In this document: positions 6,141 through 62,985 of the stretch, piece after piece
Position numbering within the stretch: the first letter of the stretch is position 1
Layout of the letters: every line of letters begins with the position of its first letter
IMG/VR virus record: IMGVR_UViG_3300033498_000048
Coordinates: 160,001-224,000 of that record
Reading direction: 5' to 3' (one strand)
DNA from: a virus
Taxonomy: Duplodnaviria > Caudoviricetes
DNA: 64,000 bases
Made by a program: the position numbers and the translations under genes
The notes under the pieces: generated by a model
What the model was told of the DNA's origin: nothing
Seen by the model: only the letters and a program-made list of their open reading frames with translations
Databases searched by the model: none

Positions 6141-7205
6141 TCATATATTGGTTTTAAATTTAATTAATGAGCTTACTGGACGTAAACTACTAACTTCTTT
6201 TTTCTTGGTCTTAGGTTTAATTATATGTTGAGGTTCAACAACTGTCAATTCAGTAGTTTGTTTACGGAATTGATTTAAGTTATTAACTTTAACTGGACTC
6301 CAATTAACTAAATTTGTAAAACTTTCCAATGGTTTTAAGAATGTTTTATTGAATTGGGTTTCTTTATCAACATATTTGTCTAATCCAAATTCCTCTAACA
6401 ATTCATCTGTAAATGCTATTGCATTATTTAATGTTGGATTTTGTTTGATTAAATATAAATATCTAACTTTCATTCCATTGGTAATTAATTGATATTCTTT
6501 ATCTAGTCCATATTTAAATAACTGATTATTGTAGGTTAGGCTAGCTTTGACTTGGACTGGAGTTCCAGACTTCCACGAAAATTTGTTTCCATGTAAACCA
6601 ACATCACTCCAACCACCAATGTCATTTACTCCAGTTGGCTTTGCTATATCATACAAATCAAGCTTAGGGTACGCAGCTTTAAATGATTTAACACGTTGCT
6701 GTAGGTCAGCCTCAGTTCCGTTTAATATTAGCTTAAAACAGGCTTCCAGTTCATTTTTGACTATATTTGGAGTGCTTGTTCGAGCTGTTTCAACACCAAC
6801 TGACTTTAATTTTGGTTCCGCATAACGGACATTTTCATTGTCCCAAACTTGTAAAATGTAGTTCTTTTTCGCTCTCCAAATACCCCTATCACAAATCACT
6901 TCACGTTTCATCTTTAGTGTATTATCAATTGCGTTTAAATAATTTGATAATATCGCAAATTTTTCATCTATAAATGGAGTAACCACTTCATCCGAAAATT
7001 TACTTAAATAGTCCACAATAGTATTAGTTGGAGTGTTTTGTGGAACAACTCTTTCTATTAAATTATTTAATTCTAAATACGAGGAATTATGTAGTAATAC
7101 CCCATTACCAAAAAAGTTGTGACAATCAGCAACTTCAATATCATATACCCATTCTTCTTGTATTCCCAATGATTCGATTGTAAAATTATTTGTTTCTACA
7201 AGCAT
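6141..7205 (-). CDS. gp43: DNA polymerase gp43 C-terminal piece, preceded by a 40-aa C-intein
   Basis: After HN|S come family-B polymerase motifs MKREVI, KKNYIL, KSVGVETARTSTP. Confidence 0.95.
   Translation of the reverse strand: MLVETNNFTIESLGIQEEWVYDIEVADCHNFFGNGVLLHNSSYLELNNLIERVVPQNTPTNTIVDYLSKFSDEVVTPFIDEKFAILSNYLNAIDNTLKMKREVICDRGIWRAKKNYILQVWDNENVRYAEPKLKSVGVETARTSTPNIVKNELEACFKLILNGTEADLQQRVKSFKAAYPKLDLYDIAKPTGVNDIGGWSDVGLHGNKFSWKSGTPVQVKASLTYNNQLFKYGLDKEYQLITNGMKVRYLYLIKQNPTLNNAIAFTDELLEEFGLDKYVDKETQFNKTFLKPLESFTNLVNWSPVKVNNLNQFRKQTTELTVVEPQHIIKPKTKKKEVSSLRPVSSLIKFKTNI
7086..7205 (-). mobile_element. split intein C-fragment (40 aa) of gp43
   Basis: MLVETNNFTIESLGIQEEWVYDIEVADCHNFFGNGVLLHN|S: intein blocks F and G. 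Confidence 0.95.
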
Positions 7206-18333: not shown

Positions 18334-18362
18334 ATTATATAATGACATCGTTAAACTGTCAA
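18334..18362 (-). promoter_or_regulatory. sigma70-type promoter driving the replication operon
   Basis: TTGACA-N17-TATAAT perfect match on the minus strand. Confidence 0.8.
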
Positions 18363-26390: not shown

Positions 26391-26720
26391 CTATCGTCTT
26401 TTAGGATAGATAGACTCACCAGTTTCGTGAGGTAATTTGGCTGACGTTTTAACTACGACAGCATTAATATATCCAACTTTTTTAATTAAAATTGTGTTAA
26501 TAACAGCCATATCATCTGGTTCTGATGATATGATTGTTACTGCAACGGTATCACGTTCATCAACATATTCGATTTTTGCTGATGATAAGTCTACTCCATA
26601 ATCACCTAATTCAGATTTAGAATTTTTAAATAATGTATTGGTCATATAGAAACAATACTTCATTTGTACTGATTCGGTCATTTTTGTGTAGGCATTAAAA
26701 CTAATGTGTTTAATTGACAT
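26391..26720 (-). CDS. hypothetical protein
   Basis: ORF with SD and GATAAATA upstream. Confidence 0.55.
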   Translation of the reverse strand: MSIKHISFNAYTKMTESVQMKYCFYMTNTLFKNSKSELGDYGVDLSSAKIEYVDERDTVAVTIISSEPDDMAVINTILIKKVGYINAVVVKTSAKLPHETGESIYPKRR

Positions 26721-26784
26721 ATTAATGTTCCTTAAATATAATTATTTATCAATTGTAATATTTTAGGTAGAGGTGTACTAAACC

Positions 26785-27039: not shown

Positions 27040-27068
27040 TTGACACAAAATTAACTTCGTAGTATATT
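27040..27068 (+). promoter_or_regulatory. sigma70-type promoter
   Basis: TTGACA-N17-TATATT. Confidence 0.6.
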
Positions 27069-27103: not shown

Positions 27104-28267
27104 ATGATAAGAAAAACGGTAAAAAACTTACATGGCAACGAAGTGTGGGCTGACAAAAGGTATATTTCGATTGATTGCCCTGAAGACCATTGGAAAAATA
27201 TGCCAGATTTCAAAATAAAACCATCAACTGTGTATTGTGCTATATCATTTGAGTTTGAATCACAAGATGATGTACAAACATTTGCCAATACTATAGGACA
27301 AACAATCCACCCTGGAACAAAATCAATATGGCATCCTAAATTAAATATCGGTGATTTTTCAAAAGTTAGATATGTTTCAAATCGTGAACCAGAAAATTCT
27401 ATGAAATATCCAATTTATATTCCATCTAAGGGACGACATAAAAACAGATTAACATCCGACACTCTAATCAAAATGGGTATTAAGCATTATATAGTGGTTG
27501 AAGAATCTGAATATGATTTATATCTTAAAGTATGTAATCCAGATTTTGTAACAGTATTGGTTATTCCACAAAGCTATTTTGATGAATATGAAACATTGGA
27601 CGATTTAGGGTCAACAAAATCAAAGGGACCAGGACCAGCAAGAAACTTTGCATGGGAACATTCAATTTCAATGGGACATAAACGACATTGGGTCTGTGAT
27701 GATAATGTTCAAAATTTTTATCGACTTAATAATAGCAAACGTGTTATTGTTTCAGATAGTGCGATATTTAGAGCAATGGAAGACCATGCTGATAGTTATG
27801 AAAACGTTTATATGTCTGGTCCACACTATCGTTTTTTTGTTCTTCCAAATAAAATCCGTTCTCCATTTTCAATTAATACTAGAATTTACTCTACAAACTT
27901 GATTCTAAATGATATTCCATTTAGATGGCGTGGTAGATATAATGAAGACACGATTTTATCGTTAGATATTTTAGCATCTGGGAATTGTACGTTCCAATAT
28001 TATGCGTTTTTGAGTGGTAAAGTCAAAACTCAATCGATTAAAGGTGGAAACACAGATGAGTTCTATTCAAAAGAAGGGACTAAACCGAAATCACAAATGC
28101 TAAAAGATGTTTACCCAGACATCACAGACGTGGTGTGGAAATTCAATCGGTGGCATCACATCGTTGATTATTCCAAATTTAGAGGCAACAGATTAAAAAC
28201 AAATATTGACTTTGTTCCAAATATCAGTGACAATAACTATGGAATGAAATTGGTGGAAATAAATTAA
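27104..28267 (+). CDS. GT-A fold glycosyltransferase, TET-associated/GREB1-like type, with fused N-terminal domain
   Basis: YPIYIPSKGR, WVCDDN, NTRIYS, WRGRYNEDTILSL. Confidence 0.75.
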   Translation: MIRKTVKNLHGNEVWADKRYISIDCPEDHWKNMPDFKIKPSTVYCAISFEFESQDDVQTFANTIGQTIHPGTKSIWHPKLNIGDFSKVRYVSNREPENSMKYPIYIPSKGRHKNRLTSDTLIKMGIKHYIVVEESEYDLYLKVCNPDFVTVLVIPQSYFDEYETLDDLGSTKSKGPGPARNFAWEHSISMGHKRHWVCDDNVQNFYRLNNSKRVIVSDSAIFRAMEDHADSYENVYMSGPHYRFFVLPNKIRSPFSINTRIYSTNLILNDIPFRWRGRYNEDTILSLDILASGNCTFQYYAFLSGKVKTQSIKGGNTDEFYSKEGTKPKSQMLKDVYPDITDVVWKFNRWHHIVDYSKFRGNRLKTNIDFVPNISDNNYGMKLVEIN

Positions 28268-28429
28268 ATGACTACTAGAAAAATATTAATACGTTTTGCA
28301 TCTCAAAGTGATGTGGATGATTTTATCAAAAAAACTGGCATTAACATCAATACTAAAATGACACGATGCAAATATGCTCCAAAACTATCATTAAAGCGTT
28401 TCATTAAACGAAAAACTGAGGAAGTATAA
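28268..28429 (+). CDS. small protein resembling the N-terminal domain of the preceding glycosyltransferase
   Basis: Manual translation MTTRKILIRFASQSDVDDFIKKTGININ..., compared with ISFEFESQDDVQTFANTIG in 27104..28267. Confidence 0.5.
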   Translation: MTTRKILIRFASQSDVDDFIKKTGININTKMTRCKYAPKLSLKRFIKRKTEEV

Positions 28430-28653
28430 TGAAAACTAAAGTTGTATTTAAAATTCTTGAAGGTAATGTAATTGCATTGTTTCCAGATATTCGTGAAAGT
28501 GGCAATACAATTCTCAGTTATATGCACATCGGTCAACATAGTGCAGCAGCTAGATGTTGGTTATATGAATTAGTTGATGCCACTGTTGCACAATATAGTC
28601 AACTCAAAAAAGAGTTAATTAGTATTGGGTATGATTTACAGCTAATTAATTAA
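28429..28653 (+). CDS. hypothetical phage protein
   Basis: VIALFPD...SYMHIGQHS...YSQLKKEL.SIGY. Confidence 0.6.
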   Translation: MKTKVVFKILEGNVIALFPDIRESGNTILSYMHIGQHSAAARCWLYELVDATVAQYSQLKKELISIGYDLQLIN

Positions 28654-28670
28654 TGTGTTAAACATTTCCA

Positions 28671-29021
28671 TTGGAAATGGCTTTAATTGACAGAATGGAG
28701 CTTGAAATGTGCGATTTAAAAAAAGAGTGTAGTGTGTTAAATGATGTGCTTAAAGAGCAGCATTTTGGGTTAAGTTTTTACGATACCCATTTTGATATAA
28801 TCCCAGAATTAAAGTTGTTTAGGGTGATAGATATTGCTATAGCTGCATACACATTAGATAGTGCAATTAATTATTATAAAAAGCATATAGGTGTTGATGT
28901 TGACATTAACGATGGAGACGTGTATGAAATTTCTAATTCTCAGATGGACAATTATGTTGGTGTGACACTGAAGTCCAAAACGGCAAAAGAGTTTGATTTT
29001 TTATTTAGGTGGGAGATATAG
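28671..29021 (+). CDS. hypothetical protein
   Basis: ORF in operon. Confidence 0.55.
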   Translation: MEMALIDRMELEMCDLKKECSVLNDVLKEQHFGLSFYDTHFDIIPELKLFRVIDIAIAAYTLDSAINYYKKHIGVDVDINDGDVYEISNSQMDNYVGVTLKSKTAKEFDFLFRWEI

Positions 29022-29024
29022 GTT

Positions 29025-30188
29025 ATGTTATACATTCCAAGTCAATTAAGAATTGGTTATAGAAATGATGGTGAATCATATAATGGAAAGCTAGGTTACA
29101 TCATACACATGGACAATAGAAAAACAGTTCCTAATGGGTGGGAAAAATGGAGAAATAAAGATATACACCCGATGGATATTCAAAATGTTCCAACCACTGG
29201 GTTTAAATTAGGTAAGGCAGTTGGTGGTGGACGCTCGTGGAATGCAAGACAAGATTGGGTTAGGGTTTATGACCCAAGAGGTTTTGAATTTGAAATATCG
29301 GTTGATAATTTATTGATTATATTGGGAAGCTCCAATAGTATCCATAAAGAATTGGAAGGTGAATTTGTTTATTCGTGGAATAGACAGCAATTAGTATTAT
29401 TACCAGTAGATTCAATTGAATACCGAGATGCTATGTTAGATACTATGGTTGTAACGAGTGGTAAAAAGTTCAAAAAAACAGATTTGATTATTGGACACAC
29501 ATACACGTTTAAAAACAAAAAACAATATGTGTATATTGGTAGCGATTATAATACACATAGGTTTTATGACACAACTAGGATTGATAATTCTAGGGATAGA
29601 GTTAAACTTGGTCTTGACTTTTTTGACTATTTCTACGAGACAACATCACTAACACAACTGTTGTACATATCAGATACTATTGATGATAATTGGACTGAAT
29701 TATCACACCAAATGCAATTTTCACCAGTTTTTCACGTTTGTACTTCCGTAGAGGAAGTTGAATTTGATACTGAAAACATACCTGAATTATTGGAATATAT
29801 GTCTACAGGTAAATCAATTAGACTTAATTTTCAACCAATTCGAGTTAAATGTAGTAATAAGACTGTATTTGGTCCAATGGAGATAAACTTAAAAGGCAGA
29901 TTGGACTGTGTTAAAACATTGATTCCATGGGATTATGCTATGGTTAATCCAGATAGAGAAGTATCAGATGGTGTTTTTGAATTTAGATTCCCAACGGAGT
30001 ATTGTTATAAATTCAAATGTGAACCATTATTTACCAAACAGAATGTACATTACAATGTAGTAACACTTACACTAGATGAATTAATATCGAAATTTTATGT
30101 GGTATATTTAAAACATAATTTATCTAACGGTAACTATTATTATAGTGGAAAGTTAGATAATAGACGGAACAATAATTATGAAAATTAA
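29025..30188 (+). CDS. conserved hypothetical protein of large phages
   Basis: GKLGYII...WEKWR...NVPTTGFKL...RVYDPRGFEFEISVDNL. Confidence 0.65.
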   Translation: MLYIPSQLRIGYRNDGESYNGKLGYIIHMDNRKTVPNGWEKWRNKDIHPMDIQNVPTTGFKLGKAVGGGRSWNARQDWVRVYDPRGFEFEISVDNLLIILGSSNSIHKELEGEFVYSWNRQQLVLLPVDSIEYRDAMLDTMVVTSGKKFKKTDLIIGHTYTFKNKKQYVYIGSDYNTHRFYDTTRIDNSRDRVKLGLDFFDYFYETTSLTQLLYISDTIDDNWTELSHQMQFSPVFHVCTSVEEVEFDTENIPELLEYMSTGKSIRLNFQPIRVKCSNKTVFGPMEINLKGRLDCVKTLIPWDYAMVNPDREVSDGVFEFRFPTEYCYKFKCEPLFTKQNVHYNVVTLTLDELISKFYVVYLKHNLSNGNYYYSGKLDNRRNNNYEN

Positions 30189-31419
30189 TAAACTTGAAAT
30201 TCAAAATTTCAAATGTATTGAAAATGCTACAATTAAATTTAATTCCAGTATGACAGTTTTAATTGGTGATAATGGAACTGGTAAAACAACAATATTAGAT
30301 GCGTTGTCTTTTGTATTGGGGGCTTTTTTAACTGGGATTGATGGAACTCCAAAACGACCATTAAAAACAACTGAGAAAAGACAGATTCACAACAAAGATG
30401 TTTTTGTAGTTCAATTGCCACTTAGAACAACTGTCCAGTTGTCGCTATTGGGTGAAGATTATTGTTATTACTTACAATCGACTAAAGAGAGTGGTAATCC
30501 AAGCTATATTAATGCAAAAAAGTTAATTGACAAAGCAAAAGAGTTGACTAAACAAGTTAGGTTTGGAGTTGGAGTTAATTTGCCATTAATGGCTTATTAT
30601 AATACTACATTTGAACACAAAAACAAAGAAGTCGCATATGCAAAAATGACATCACGCTTAATAGGTTACGATGATTGTTTATTTCCAGAGGTTGTATCTT
30701 ATAAATTTTTAAGTTGGTTTAAAACATTTGAAGATTCTAAATTAAAATTTAATAAAGATGATGGCTTATATAAAGCCTTTACTAATGCTATTAGTAGTAT
30801 GATTCCTGAATGGAAAAACATTCATTATAATTGGAAAGAAGATGATATTGTTGGACAATTAGACAATGTTGGTTGGACATCTTTTAGAATGTTAAGTGAT
30901 AGTTATAAACACATTATTCGCATTGTAGCTGATATTGCTTATCGTGCAATTAAATTAAACCCTCACTTAGGCATCAATGCTGTTACAGAAACAGAAGGTG
31001 TTGTTTTAATTGATGGAATTGATACACACTTGCATCCCAAATGGCAACGAGCAGTGGTTTCTGGTTTTAAAAGAACGTTTCCCAATATTCAATTTATTGT
31101 TACGACACATTCGCCACAATTGTTAAGCAGTGTTCATAAAAACGATATATTTATCTTAAAGGGTAATAAATTACATCAACCATCCAGTAATCCGATTGGT
31201 CGAGATTCCAGTGATATTTTGGCTGAAATTATGGACATTACTAAGCGTCCTGATGATATTCAAAAACTATCCGATAACTATTTTTCTTTACTGAATAAAA
31301 AATTATTTGAAGAAGCTCAAGAAGTTCGTAACCAACTGTTGGATAAATTAGATAGCAAAGACCCTATTTTTATTAGAGCAGATGCAATGATGACACGATT
31401 GCAATTGTTGAAAAAATGA
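30178..31419 (+). CDS. PtuA-like (Septu/retron-effector type) ABC ATPase with altered catalytic motifs
   Basis: GDNGTGKTT, LSDSY, VADIAYR..KLNPHLG, LIDGIDTHLHPKWQR, QFIVTTHSPQ. Confidence 0.85.
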   Translation: MKINKLEIQNFKCIENATIKFNSSMTVLIGDNGTGKTTILDALSFVLGAFLTGIDGTPKRPLKTTEKRQIHNKDVFVVQLPLRTTVQLSLLGEDYCYYLQSTKESGNPSYINAKKLIDKAKELTKQVRFGVGVNLPLMAYYNTTFEHKNKEVAYAKMTSRLIGYDDCLFPEVVSYKFLSWFKTFEDSKLKFNKDDGLYKAFTNAISSMIPEWKNIHYNWKEDDIVGQLDNVGWTSFRMLSDSYKHIIRIVADIAYRAIKLNPHLGINAVTETEGVVLIDGIDTHLHPKWQRAVVSGFKRTFPNIQFIVTTHSPQLLSSVHKNDIFILKGNKLHQPSSNPIGRDSSDILAEIMDITKRPDDIQKLSDNYFSLLNKKLFEEAQEVRNQLLDKLDSKDPIFIRADAMMTRLQLLKK

Positions 31420-31543
31420 CATATTGTGTTGTTATAATAGCTTGGACACACCGACAATCACTGGAGTTAAACGATATGTGAATAATACTGTCATAGTGTG
31501 TCCAACAACAAAACGTTGCTTAGAACTAAAATAAAAATATGTT

Positions 31544-31975
31544 TTGACAACGTTTTTTAAACCTATTATAATACCACGCATTAGTTACACCAACTGTGAG
31601 AAGAATATGAGTACAACTTTACAAGCACTAGACAGATTGATTAAATGTCACGATTCATTAGCATATCCAAACAAACCACATAATAGTCCAGCAATAGATA
31701 ACGAGTTAATTGAGCTGTTTAATAATGATGCTAGTTATTATGCAGTTGATATTGATGCTATTAGAGATGGAAGTTATTTTGGAAGACAATGTTCAATTGC
31801 ATTTTCAGAGTCTCCAATTATGGGAACTTCAATTGAGCTTGAAATTGCTTGGGATAATACAAATATTGCTGTTTATACTGCTAACCATAATGGTTATTGG
31901 GTTGCACCATACACAACTAATAAAAACGTATTAAAGGCTTGGAAACAGTTTTTAAAGAAACATTTATTCATTTAA
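31544..31975 (+). CDS. hypothetical protein
   Basis: ORF; start may be internal (MSTTLQ). Confidence 0.55.
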   Translation: MTTFFKPIIIPRISYTNCEKNMSTTLQALDRLIKCHDSLAYPNKPHNSPAIDNELIELFNNDASYYAVDIDAIRDGSYFGRQCSIAFSESPIMGTSIELEIAWDNTNIAVYTANHNGYWVAPYTTNKNVLKAWKQFLKKHLFI

Positions 31976-32376: not shown

Positions 32377-32625
32377 ATGAAACAAATAACAAAATATTTA
32401 CAAGAAACATTACAATTAATTCCAGATTGGGATTGTAATGATTACTATTATGGTGACTCAAATATAGAAGTTTTACACGATAAGGTTTGGATATGTATTC
32501 AGCATATATATGGAGCGTATGTTGTTTTGATAGCCCCAATTAATGAAGCAGCTATAAAGAAAACATTACAAACCGAGGAAGATGTTATTGAATTATTTAA
32601 TTCTGTTTCACTAATCATTTCATAG
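32377..32625 (+). CDS. hypothetical protein
   Basis: ORF. Confidence 0.45.
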   Translation: MKQITKYLQETLQLIPDWDCNDYYYGDSNIEVLHDKVWICIQHIYGAYVVLIAPINEAAIKKTLQTEEDVIELFNSVSLIIS

Positions 32626-33301
32626 TCCATATTGGGTCAGTAAACACTAAATGAATTTTAGAGCCATTGTATCGCATCATAATATTATTTCCATGTACAT
32701 CTGGTTTAAACTTTTTGAACAATGGCTCTAACAATCTAAGTGCATTTTTTAATTTTGGGTCTGGAGTATTAGTCATCATTAATTGTCTATAATTTGAATC
32801 TTTAAATCTATTCCACATTGTTTTTATTGGGTCATAATAATCTTCAAATTCAATATCAGTTGGAACCAACCCTAAAACTTGTAACATCTTCAAAACTCGT
32901 TCTGGTTCAAAATCCTTAATACTGTTTAGTTTTTCCATTGAAATTAATAATATTTGTTTGCCCTTATATTGTTTATATTCTAAGTTTTGTTGTAGGAATA
33001 TAACATCTTCTGCTGATAATTCAGCACGGTCATATAGTTTAAATCCACGCACTATTGGAAAATATGGATTATCTTGATGGTTAGAACACAATCGTAGAAA
33101 CTGAATTGATGGGTCATTATCTCCAACAACATTAACAACTTTTAAAACCGAGCTAGGTTGCGACTTCATTGAATATACAGTTGATTGTATGCCTGTTCCT
33201 AATACTTCCATATTAGGATTATTGAAGACTCCTGTTATTGGCTTATTTGACTTTGGAATCTCAATTTTCTTTTCTTTTAAGAATGTGTTAAATGTTAGCA
33301 T
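32615..33301 (-). CDS. protein kinase-like enzyme with capsid-targeting-like N-terminus
   Basis: MLTFNTFLKE; LGTGIQSTVY (Gly loop), VLKV, MEKL (hinge), DVHGNNIM (catalytic loop), FTDP. Confidence 0.75.
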   Translation of the reverse strand: MLTFNTFLKEKKIEIPKSNKPITGVFNNPNMEVLGTGIQSTVYSMKSQPSSVLKVVNVVGDNDPSIQFLRLCSNHQDNPYFPIVRGFKLYDRAELSAEDVIFLQQNLEYKQYKGKQILLISMEKLNSIKDFEPERVLKMLQVLGLVPTDIEFEDYYDPIKTMWNRFKDSNYRQLMMTNTPDPKLKNALRLLEPLFKKFKPDVHGNNIMMRYNGSKIHLVFTDPIWTMK

Positions 33302-33303
33302 AG

Positions 33304-33770
33304 TTAATTCGGTGTTAAAAAATAATATGTATCTTCATTGTCATCAACAACCTTATCTAATTTCAGTCCAGGTATAAATTTACTAGCACTATTTGACAAT
33401 CTACTATATAACTTTACCCGACTAGGTTCATTATTAGCAGCACATAATCCAACATGATTAACATTGCCATTAGATTTCAAATATTGTCTGATTGCATCAA
33501 ATACAATTGAAAATATGTAAATTGAATCTGTGCCTGATGGTAACAATTTTGCTGTGAATTTTCCATCTTTATCGGTTCTATCAAATGATATATGCAAGTA
33601 GTTGTATCTGAAACTTTTTAGATTTTTCATGGAAAATAAAAGATACTCGAATTGTGTATTCTCCATCATCGTAAGAATATAGGGTAGAATCGCTACTCTT
33701 AATTTCGATAGAAAATTTTATGTCATTTGAATTTCATTTCTTTCAAATATTCATTGAACGGTAATATCAA
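33304..33770 (-). pseudogene. frameshifted third paralog of the EPSRVKLY family
   Basis: The C-terminal part (track ORF 33304..33669) aligns with 34297..34827. The N-terminal LPFNEYLKEM and a middle segment lie in other frames. CATAAATA at 33783-33790. Confidence 0.55.
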
Positions 33771-33791
33771 CTCAAAAATAATTATTTATGT

Positions 33792-34280
33792 TTAGTTACA
33801 TTTCAACAGATAATATTCATTATAATTGAAAGTTTTTTCTACTGAGTTTAAGTTGCGACTAAATTTTGTGATGTTTTTATATATTCTGTCATATAATTTC
33901 ACCCTGGATGGTTCATCTGCATCAGCCGAAAAAACAATATAATCGTGGTTTTTTGATTCAATTGAAATTACTTGGGTAACTAATGAAAGGATAATATATT
34001 CGCTATTATTGCTGTTGGTGATTTCGTATTCACCATTTGTTGAAAATTCAACTCCACAAACACGTTCATTATCCGAAAATCGTTTATTAAATATGTCGTT
34101 AAGTAAATTTATATCCATGCCAAAAAACTTAACTTGGATTATGATATTCCCATTCAATGGAATATCATAATTTATATGTCCATACTTAACATATCTTTTA
34201 AACTTAAAACCATTCAGGTTGTATCTGGTTAATGTTACCTCGGAAATATAATCTTTAAACTTTAACATTTTATTGTCCAC
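33792..34280 (-). CDS. EPSRVKLY-family protein, putative internal virion protein
   Basis: MLKFKDYISE; FSADADEPSRVKLYDR. Confidence 0.65.
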   Translation of the reverse strand: MDNKMLKFKDYISEVTLTRYNLNGFKFKRYVKYGHINYDIPLNGNIIIQVKFFGMDINLLNDIFNKRFSDNERVCGVEFSTNGEYEITNSNNSEYIILSLVTQVISIESKNHDYIVFSADADEPSRVKLYDRIYKNITKFSRNLNSVEKTFNYNEYYLLKCN

Positions 34281-34296
34281 ATTTGTTTTACGAATG

Positions 34297-34827
34297 TTAC
34301 TTGGAAAGGAAATACCATTTAGCCGAGTGACTGTTAATTATTCTCTTATTAGTGAATCCAGTTAAATATTTTTCTGCCTGTTTAAAAAACCTATCATACA
34401 ATTTTACTCTGCTAGGTTCACTAAAGTCGGCTGAAAACTCAATAGTTTCAACTTGTGAATTACCTTTTAAGTATTGTCTTAATGCCTCTAGTACGACTGA
34501 AAATATTGTAATAGCAGCACCACCACTTGGAATAATACCCCACCCTTCTTGGTCATCTCGCTTAAACGTAACATCCACCATATTTTCAATGAAAACTGGT
34601 ACATCCACCATATTTTCAGTGGAAACTGGTGCATCCATATGATAATCTTTGTATTTTTTGAAAAAACGGAAGGTTATCTTTAGTGGTATATCACCAATGT
34701 AACATTTGTAATAGGTGTTATTACCTGCTGATGTAATGGTAAAATCCATTTCCACACCAAGACTGAACGACATTTCATCCAATTTGTGTTGTTGTGTTAA
34801 TATAAACTGATTAAATGTCTTCATCAT
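34297..34827 (-). CDS. EPSRVKLY-family protein, putative internal virion protein
   Basis: MKTFNQFI; FSADFSEPSRVKLYDR; TATAAATA at 34845-34852. Confidence 0.65.
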   Translation of the reverse strand: MMKTFNQFILTQQHKLDEMSFSLGVEMDFTITSAGNNTYYKCYIGDIPLKITFRFFKKYKDYHMDAPVSTENMVDVPVFIENMVDVTFKRDDQEGWGIIPSGGAAITIFSVVLEALRQYLKGNSQVETIEFSADFSEPSRVKLYDRFFKQAEKYLTGFTNKRIINSHSAKWYFLSK

Positions 34828-35956: not shown

Positions 35957-37240
35957 TTAATCACATCTTGGAATCATACCTCTTATCCAATGTAACTCTG
36001 GTTCCACTTTATTCCTATCAATAGAATATGTTTTAATACCATCATTCCAAAATTCTTTTTTAGCAGCATTCGGTTTATTTTTCTTTAATCTTGGTTTCAT
36101 TCCTTTAATCCAATGTGATTCTGGTACGTCATCAACCGAAATAAAATAGTTTTTAATTCCATCGTTCCAATAAACCATTTCACCTGCTTTACGTTTTAAA
36201 TCCGAATTAACATTCCTTTCTAATCCACCCTCATTCCAACCATCTCCAGGATGTTCTTTAAATTTCTTAGTGATAATCCCATTATTGTAAGATTTTGACC
36301 CAATGTTAGCCTGTTTAGCTTTAATGGCATTCTCAATGTACATTCTAGTTAAAGCCTCAGTTTTTTTAGCTCCAAGGTTTAATAGCTTGACATCTGGATT
36401 ATCAGTAGTAGTCCAACCATAAGGTGTAATTCCATCTGGGTGATAATAAAATTGTTTTCCTGACATTGCTTGTGAGTGTTTCTTTTTTTCTATTACAAAT
36501 CGGTATTCACGGCTTTCTGAGTCCAAATATGGCATCCACCCTTGTGCTAAATATTCGTTTAAATCTATTTCATTAATTACAAACTTCTTATCAATATCAA
36601 GAAAGTACAATTTAATCTTTTTTAGATTATCTTTAGCGTTGCTCATTAATTGTTTGGATTCATTGGACATTTTATATCCCATATTATTTCCAACTAAATT
36701 TAGTTTTTTAATTAACGGACTATCTGTTTGTAAATAAAAACGATTACCAAGCTCGTCTTTATAAGTTGACTTATTCTTATGGAATTGTGAATGATATTTT
36801 TTTAGTGGAACTCTAATACTAGCTAGGTATCTTATTTGGACACAAGTAGGGATTAATCTATATGATAGTCTTGAATTGGTATTAGAATTGAAATTATATA
36901 GCATACAAAATAACGCATTAGTTTGTGAACCTTTATATGTTTTGTGTAACAATATGTGAGCTATAATGTGTTGTCTTGATGTTAGTTTAACTTTATTCCA
37001 ACTATGCAAATTGAAATTGGAATATTGTGGAAATAAGTCTTTTGCTTTAGGGCAAATGTGATGATATTCAACGTAATCATTTACATTTAACGATTCGTTA
37101 GCAATTTTACAATGATTTATTAATTTGATATATCTATTAAGATAATGTGAATTGTGTTTTTTTGAACTTAGAATGGTTTGTATGTCTTCCATTAATAACT
37201 TCCGTTTTAGTTTAGTGACTATACCGTAATTATAACACAA
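35957..37240 (-). CDS. free-standing HNH homing endonuclease with NUMOD-like C-terminal repeats
   Basis: EYHHICPK...NKVKLTSRQHIIAHILL; repeated (Y/W)N(D/N)GI units. Confidence 0.8.
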   Translation of the reverse strand: MCYNYGIVTKLKRKLLMEDIQTILSSKKHNSHYLNRYIKLINHCKIANESLNVNDYVEYHHICPKAKDLFPQYSNFNLHSWNKVKLTSRQHIIAHILLHKTYKGSQTNALFCMLYNFNSNTNSRLSYRLIPTCVQIRYLASIRVPLKKYHSQFHKNKSTYKDELGNRFYLQTDSPLIKKLNLVGNNMGYKMSNESKQLMSNAKDNLKKIKLYFLDIDKKFVINEIDLNEYLAQGWMPYLDSESREYRFVIEKKKHSQAMSGKQFYYHPDGITPYGWTTTDNPDVKLLNLGAKKTEALTRMYIENAIKAKQANIGSKSYNNGIITKKFKEHPGDGWNEGGLERNVNSDLKRKAGEMVYWNDGIKNYFISVDDVPESHWIKGMKPRLKKNKPNAAKKEFWNDGIKTYSIDRNKVEPELHWIRGMIPRCD

Positions 37241-62956: not shown

Positions 62957-62985
62957 TTGACAAAGGCATTGATGTTAATTATAAT
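62957..62985 (+). promoter_or_regulatory. sigma70-type promoter, divergent from terminase piece A
   Basis: TTGACA-N17-TATAAT perfect match. Confidence 0.8.

Follow-up and report, generated by a model that had tools for sequence, protein, structure and literature searches.

Septu systems and an orphan PtuA-like phage gene

Septu is among the commoner bacterial defence systems. Its ATPase, PtuA, contacts the HNH nuclease PtuB through a C-terminal extension, and two PtuA tails form, together with the C-terminal domain of PtuB, a nine-helix bundle (PMC12819146; PMC12673091). Septu restricts T-even phages (PMC13096335). In the present work we describe an orphan, chimeric PtuA-like gene of a phage, located at 30178..31419 of a window of 64,000 nucleotides, namely bases 160001-224000 of the 305,782-bp IMG/VR record IMGVR_UViG_3300033498_000048 (positions below are those of the window). 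Our favoured reading, to which we assign a probability of about 0.4, is that the gene encodes a non-catalytic PtuA, maintained by the phage, which may act as an anti-Septu decoy or a PtuB trap.

The ATP site of PtuA has been altered experimentally in two described systems. In the stand-alone Septu Ec-B88, substitutions in Walker A (K43) and Walker B (D316) abolish immunity (PMC13096335). In Retron-Eco7, residue E396 of PtuA, the equivalent of the glutamate that is lost in the phage protein, bridges the ATPase dimer, and both E396A and E396Q abolish defence (PMC12673091). In stand-alone Septu PtuA, ATP is reported to be bound but not hydrolysed, and to inhibit the nuclease (PMC12673091, PMC12819146).

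A PtuA homologue without PtuB

The open reading frame (ORF) at 30178..31419 is a full-length homologue of PtuA. The PADLOC PtuA profile PDLC00278 matches it with E=1.7e-115, residues 1-411 aligning to profile positions 1-431 of 436, and a phmmer comparison with the solved E. coli Septu PtuA (8EE4) gives E=2e-47. The structure modelled with AlphaFold2 from 78 sequences reaches a mean predicted local distance difference test score (pLDDT) of 90 and a predicted template modelling score (pTM) of 0.86, and ends in three C-terminal helices (residues 359-373, 377-390 and 396-412). Its top match in the Protein Data Bank (PDB) according to Foldseek is the E. coli PtuAB complex 8EEA (chain 8EEA_D), with a template modelling (TM) score of 0.78 over the full length. 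The PtuA fold, including the C-terminal helical extension, is recognised both in the model and in the likeness of the tail to PtuB-paired proteins. The parts of the gene, which is related to two clades of cellular Septu (A and B), are as follows:

30178..31419, plus strand: orphan, chimeric PtuA-like gene; 413 amino acids, ATG start, intact frame
30178..31074, plus strand: head, residues 1-299; ATP-binding cassette (ABC) ATPase core with insertions, derived from Septu clade A
30265..30288, plus strand: Walker A, GDNGTGKT, residues 30-37; intact, in agreement with GxxGxGK[ST]
30892..30906, plus strand: signature motif LSDSY, residues 239-243, with Gly242 replaced by Ser
31000..31038, plus strand: Walker B and D-loop, VVLIDGIDTHLHP, residues 275-287
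31075..31116, plus strand: crossover zone TFPNIQFIVTTHSP, residues 300-313, including the H-loop; a 42-nt block
31117..31416, plus strand: tail, residues 314-413, derived from clade B; the part after the H-loop, a linker and the three C-terminal helices, which in solved PtuAB complexes make up the clamp for PtuB (PMC12819146, PMC12673091)

The adjacent HNH nuclease PtuB that marks a Septu system was not found. The ORFs adjoining the PtuA-like gene have no match to a defence family, and the whole 305,782-bp record gave no match to PtuB protein, to the PtuB profile PDLC00315 or to the Pfam HNH family PF01844, searches that did give matches in control genomes. All of the relatives whose context was examined (three clade-A cellular genes, three clade-B cellular genes, three variants with Asp in Walker B, and six viral or prophage contigs) are followed by a PtuB-sized gene that overlaps or abuts them, confirmed as PtuB where it was scanned. 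The six viral or prophage contigs without exception keep the Walker B DE as well as the downstream PtuB.

Elsewhere in the window, a 427-amino-acid ORF on the minus strand (35957-37240), which adjoins the major head gene, matches homing-endonuclease/HNH families of PHROG (phrog_655, phrog_12434). This ORF was unmatched in the Pfam HNH search of the genome, has no PADLOC match and is not PtuB-like; it probably encodes a mobile endonuclease.

A chimera of two Septu clades

The identity of the phage protein to clade-A and clade-B proteins was computed in windows along its length. The head (residues 1-299) is 60-62% identical to proteins of clade A (P0002, P0003, P0004 and others) and 23-33% identical to those of clade B. 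The tail (residues 314-413) shows 84% amino acid identity and 85% nucleotide identity to the clade-B gene P0268, 56-84% identity to 22 clade-B proteins, and 22-38% to clade A. A query consisting of the tail only (residues 308-413) retrieved relatives of up to 85% identity which the full-length search did not list. Between the two parts, the protein sequence of TFPNIQFIVTTHSP is identical in both parental clades, and a 23-nt stretch of the crossover zone is identical in the phage, P0003, P0268 and P0270. A query with the junction-spanning segment returned nothing above 67% identity, and there is therefore no sampled protein of the same build (A head and B tail). On these identities, the phage gene is a chimera of two bacterial Septu types, with its crossover in a conserved block. 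The chimeric origin is new here and was absent from an earlier note on this DNA.

The two clades are paired with separate PtuB subfamilies: clade A with PDLC00315 (about 217-229 amino acids) and clade B with PDLC00332 (246 amino acids). Within clade B (P0268-P0286), the PtuB-clamping tails are 66-87% identical and the ATPase heads only 30-50%, which suggests either fast diversification of the heads or frequent head/tail shuffling in cellular Septu systems. The junction in the phage gene points to crossing over within the conserved H-loop block. The head and tail modules appear to evolve at different rates, which is of use in engineering and in work on partner specificity.

Since the record is a contig assembled from a metagenome, the gene could be the product of a chimeric assembly, or its two altered codons that of base-calling errors. 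We consider such an artefact highly improbable. Both halves lie in a phage context, the head overlapping a phage ORF and the tail preceding a phage promoter, and the tail has only 85% DNA identity to the nearest cellular gene, so that no sampled contig was mis-joined. In addition, the G+C content (GC), the G+C content at third codon positions (GC3) and the codon usage match those of the phage, the frame is intact across the junction, and it would be improbable for two independent errors to hit precisely the residues of the motifs.

Loss of the Walker B glutamate

Like its cellular relatives, the phage protein has Asp279, Asp282, His284, His286 and the H-loop (TTHSP). The Walker B pattern hhhhDE, on the other hand, reads VVLIDG in the phage protein: in the segment VLIDGIDTHLHP (residues 276-287), Gly280 is encoded by GGA at 31015-31017 versus GAA in the sister genes, a difference of one transition. 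The ABC signature, LSxG, reads LSDS, Ser242 being encoded by AGT at 30901-30903 versus GGT in the sister genes. A third change, in the D-loop region, replaces Met/Leu283 by Thr.

The Walker B Glu is present in all 77 close homologues. In 149 diverse representatives of 50% clusters, this position is occupied by Glu in 145 proteins, Asp in three and Lys in one (a truncated fragment), and across all 366 fetched homologues by Glu in 363, Asp in three and Gly in none. E280G is thus unique to the phage protein among the 366 homologues. The signature Gly is similarly invariant in the 77 close homologues and is found in 148 of the 149 representatives. The lone other Ser variant, P0248 (LSESY, with LIDDIDTHLHP), has a PtuB gene directly downstream; because P0248 is PtuB-paired despite its Ser, G242S alone is no proof of inactivation.

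The earlier note had described this ORF as an intact, full-length member of the PtuA-like family, lacking an HNH partner downstream and reading IDGID (GGA versus GAA) and LSDSY at its motifs. The profile match and frame, the scan of neighbours together with the whole-record searches for PtuB and HNH proteins, and the residues at 276-287 and 239-243 bear out each of these points. Its further proposal, that the protein is a dead subunit, is partly supported: the lost Walker B Glu is needed for defence in retron-associated PtuA, and the signature Gly-to-Ser change is not diagnostic. The description of the protein as hydrolysis-dead likewise implies a smaller departure from the family than had been assumed, stand-alone Septu PtuA being reported to bind ATP without hydrolysing it.

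The phage protein has 13 deviations at 83 conserved columns and an exceptionally long branch, both of which stem in part from its being a chimera. Of the 13, seven belong to the clade-B tail, for which they are normal, and T49A, E77V and R99L are ordinary variants across the wider family. What is then left as exceptional is G242S, E280G, M283T and a short deletion in the loop YYGTxR. The deviations are not enriched in the ATP-site motifs compared with other conserved columns, and for this reason a "targeted" inactivation is not claimed.

Selection versus decay

At columns where eight sister proteins agree, the phage protein differs in 13% of the family-conserved columns versus 30-43% of the others (Fisher p=0.002; tail included). 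The pairwise ratio of nonsynonymous to synonymous rates (dN/dS) of the tail versus P0268 is 0.15 at a dS of 0.59, with values of 0.13-0.27 for the PtuB-paired clade-B genes. Changes in the tail (58 synonymous and 242 nonsynonymous sites) were assigned to lineages using P0270 as outgroup. The phage lineage has accumulated 16 nonsynonymous and 13 synonymous changes (omega about 0.29; neutral expectation about 4.2:1), and the P0268 lineage three and six, respectively. In the head, omega is 0.28-0.33 versus 0.21-0.26 among clade-A genes, and the phage carries 44-48 unique amino acid changes versus 26-28 in its sisters, with equal synonymous counts. Both halves are constrained, about two- to five-fold less than the paired cellular genes. 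Compositional amelioration was tried as a clock and rejected, since the cellular donor genes do not differ from the phage in their richness in AT (GC3 0.19-0.24 vs 0.21).

These values bear on the possibility that the gene was orphaned only recently and is a remnant at an early stage of decay. According to this explanation, a ptuA, perhaps already chimeric, was captured without ptuB, or ptuB was later deleted, and E280G, G242S and M283T would be the first neutral changes in a functionless gene. Such a history would account for private single transitions at key sites, for the faster amino acid evolution of both halves relative to their relatives, and for the missing PtuB partner, and conservation is seen in no phage relative. 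When mutation was simulated on the gene, indels being ignored, the probability that no stop codon arose fell from 0.29 for a neutral divergence of 2% to 0.05 for 5% and 0.007 for 8%. If the neutral phase amounted to about 1-3% only, the frame would stay open with P of 0.16-0.55; the nonsynonymous excess of the tail, however, needs about 4-5%, at which an open frame would be expected in only about 5-7% of cases, indels uncounted. Moreover, conserved columns are avoided by the substitutions, no damage is seen in Walker A, Asp279, the histidines of the D-loop or the H-loop, and the gene sits in its operon without a spacer. We consider early decay an unlikely explanation.

Simple decay was also the alternative named in the earlier note, and it is disfavoured by the lineage omega, by the avoidance of conserved columns and by the intact frame. 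The same note had proposed to look for the substitutions in phage homologues, and had named their being private as an outcome that would speak against its idea. This is the outcome obtained, as none of the phage homologues shares them. Searches with the flanking genes gave no viral relatives, or distant ones without a PtuA-like gene, and relatives of the major capsid protein, which are at most 58% identical, are also without one.

Distribution of the parental types

Both clades are cellular, their genes having as neighbours either murG/murC or serS, modB and genes of C1 metabolism. Both parental clades come from the same three JGI samples (3300033516, 3300033512 and 3300045502), and the source names and reference genomes point to metagenome-assembled genomes (MAGs) of Methylococcaceae, Methylococcales and Methylomonas. 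In one Methylococcaceae MAG, contig 155 bears a gene of clade A and contig 179 one of clade B; the two types are also found together in a Methylomonas MAG. On two metagenomic contigs, the clade-A Septu operon is found inside the dcw (cell-division/cell-wall) cluster, between murG and murC (L085:1748-3665, L086:5001-6940), an unusual site for a defence system.

Operon, promoters and neighbouring genes

The 305,782-bp record is bounded by direct terminal repeats (DTR) and is taken as complete. The window has a GC of about 31% and contains genes for a T4-type major head protein, a portal, a scaffold and an SbcD/gp47 homologue. The phage is a T4-like jumbo phage of predicted virulent (lytic) type. 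The features surrounding the PtuA-like gene are the following:

26714..26742, plus strand: perfect sigma-70 consensus promoter, TTGACA-17-TATAAT, heading a plus-strand gene block
27040..27068, plus strand: sigma-70-like promoter (11/12 match), directly 5' of the glycosyltransferase gene
27104..31419, plus strand: compact operon with abutting or overlapping stops and starts, the PtuA-like gene being last
27104-28267, plus strand: TET-associated-type DNA glycosyltransferase, first gene of the operon
between the glycosyltransferase and the 387-amino-acid ORF, plus strand: three small operon ORFs of 53, 74 and 116 amino acids
29025-30188, plus strand: 387-amino-acid ORF, directly 5' of the PtuA-like gene
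31442..31505: inverted repeat with perfect 10-nt arms, TTGGACACAC and GTGTGTCCAA, 44 nt apart (64 bp in total)
31544..31572, plus strand: next perfect sigma-70 consensus promoter, opening the following transcription unit

The promoter at 27040..27068 is the likely start of the operon that ends in the PtuA-like gene, and the inverted repeat lies within the 124-nt spacer 3' of that gene, before the promoter at 31544. The window contains five perfect sigma-70 promoters, versus 0.08 expected in shuffled sequence, at 6220-6248(-), 18334-18362(-), 26714-26742(+), 31544-31572(+) and 62957-62985(+). Host-type early promoters are evidently used by the phage, and the operon of the PtuA-like gene would fit early transcription by the host polymerase, a view based on consensus matching only.

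The PtuA-like gene shares its first 11 nt with the upstream 387-amino-acid ORF, an overlap suggestive of coupled synthesis. In another explanation, the PtuA-like protein is functional but repurposed, either as an ATP- or DNA-binding scaffold with a new partner (e.g., the coupled 387-amino-acid protein) or in inter-phage competition. The evidence from selection and from the intact frame applies equally to this explanation. Phage and prophage contigs carry complete Septu systems, so the family is used otherwise by phages, and there is a second orphan mini ABC ATPase 4 kb upstream. No candidate effector was recognised, however: the 387-amino-acid protein has no Pfam or PADLOC family match and its structural model is poor, and it was rejected as a new effector partner on these grounds. 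Furthermore, the best-conserved part of the phage protein is the PtuB-binding module, and this would be difficult to understand in a protein that has nothing to do with PtuB. Without the Walker B Glu, a normal effector complex driven by ATP is also less likely. Repurposing is a possible but rather doubtful explanation.

Further genes of the region deserve mention. The upstream ATPase, P0121 (25696-26334, plus strand), is a minimal ABC ATPase of 213 amino acids with a Walker A (GENGSGKS), a Walker B (LLILDEPE) and an H-loop (ITHN). Its N-terminus matches the GajA, AriA and PtuA profiles, the best being GajA (PDLC00091, E=3.4e-14); it is the second orphan defence-type ATPase head, and an effector domain is not recognisable in it. 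Three tandem paralogues of 121, 162 and 176 amino acids (33304-34827, minus strand) have the motif EPSRVKLYDR in common and no Pfam match. A 228-amino-acid protein encoded 1.2 kb downstream (32615-33301, minus strand) shows a weak match to T7 gp0.7-type protein kinase (phrog_15752, E=5.5e-8).

Proposed function as an anti-Septu decoy

Some of what would be expected of a decoy is found at this locus: a virulent-type phage, a homologue of a host immune subunit, and the absence of the effector function (no nuclease and no Walker B Glu). The combination of a constrained PtuB clamp, almost identical to that of candidate hosts' clade-B proteins in type, a head of a second, co-resident type, a disabled Walker B, no nuclease and a DNA-modification gene as neighbour leads us to a maintained function that is linked to PtuB or PtuA, and sequestration or poisoning is the simplest function linked to the parental PtuB and PtuA. 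In the proposed mechanism, the phage PtuA would be made from the early-type operon and would then dimerise. Its clade-B tails could capture the clade-B PtuB of the host; alternatively, its clade-A head could co-assemble with the clade-A PtuA of the host. By either route, the nuclease would be trapped in complexes beyond activation.

A more elaborate form of the decoy proposal is a hybrid dominant-negative protein, with an A head, a B clamp and a disabled ATP switch, in which one early protein would disarm two Septu systems by trapping type-B PtuB and by spoiling type-A PtuA assemblies through its mismatched tails. We regard this form as improbable. If true, it would be without precedent both as a protein that inhibits Septu and as a decoy of chimeric build for a bacterial immune complex.

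Several points weigh against the decoy. That the protein is expressed early, that it binds PtuA or PtuB of the host and that it inhibits defence are inferred steps, and the operon packing and consensus promoters are circumstantial. The host would be a methanotroph, to judge from the origin of the gene only. Both halves change faster than their cellular relatives, which fits relaxed constraint too. In addition, what was counted as the phage lineage includes unsampled cellular ancestors, such that the purifying selection may date, in part or entirely, from before the gene was captured, and a short neutral phase may have followed in recent times. No related phage with the gene was found. The effect of E280G is itself uncertain, as stand-alone Septu PtuA is reported not to hydrolyse ATP. 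Finally, the equivalent Glu stabilises the PtuA dimer in Retron-Eco7 (PMC12673091), and its loss could weaken the very assembly that a decoy needs. Even an inert protein would still document how far an orphaned defence gene persists in a jumbo phage.

Comparison with known systems

The countermeasures known against Septu and Retron-Eco7 are the supply of phage tRNA-Tyr and the SegB-driven amplification of tRNA, both of which replace the cleaved tRNA (PMC11555353, PMC13096335). According to a November 2026 review (PMC13728456), tRNA-Tyr supply is the only published anti-Septu countermeasure, and proteins that bind or imitate a subunit of Septu have yet to be described. The published phage escapes thus act downstream, by tRNA-Tyr resupply, with no protein known to target PtuA or PtuB. 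In this regard, the phage studied here has 17 tRNA genes, including two for tRNA-Tyr(GTA) at G000:C1 20253-20343 and 21941-22032, outside the window. Phage antitoxin mimics that counter toxin-antitoxin defence (PMC13728456) follow the same logic as the one proposed here, i.e., a phage copy of a sequestering or regulatory subunit neutralises a toxic effector, although the likeness is conceptual only.

Within the PtuA family, the phage protein shares family and fold with the stand-alone E. coli Septu PtuA (8EE4/8EEA/8SUX; Li et al. 2024, cited in PMC12819146 and PMC12673091). Walker A, the His-x-His of the D-loop, the H-loop and the C-terminal three-helix extension are common to both. Unlike the stand-alone Septu PtuA, the phage protein has no PtuB found in its genome, carries Gly for the Walker B Glu and Ser for the signature Gly, is encoded by a T4-like jumbo phage rather than in a defence island, and combines a head and a tail from two clades. 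The PtuA of type I-A retrons (Ec78/Eco7, Ec83; 9KJX, 9NNB, 9E8Z) is a homologous ATPase whose C-terminal helices also clamp PtuB (PMC12673091, PMC12819146). The retron PtuA has an N-terminal extension and a helical flap for binding the reverse transcriptase and multicopy single-stranded DNA (RT/msDNA), and it hydrolyses ATP. The phage protein, in contrast, belongs with the short, stand-alone PtuA proteins. Closest of all are the methanotroph Septu clades A (P0003/L086, P0004/L084) and B (P0268/L251, P0276/L255), the direct parents of the phage halves. Unlike the phage gene, these cellular genes each have an overlapping ptuB of their own subfamily downstream, and keep both the Walker B DE and the signature Gly.

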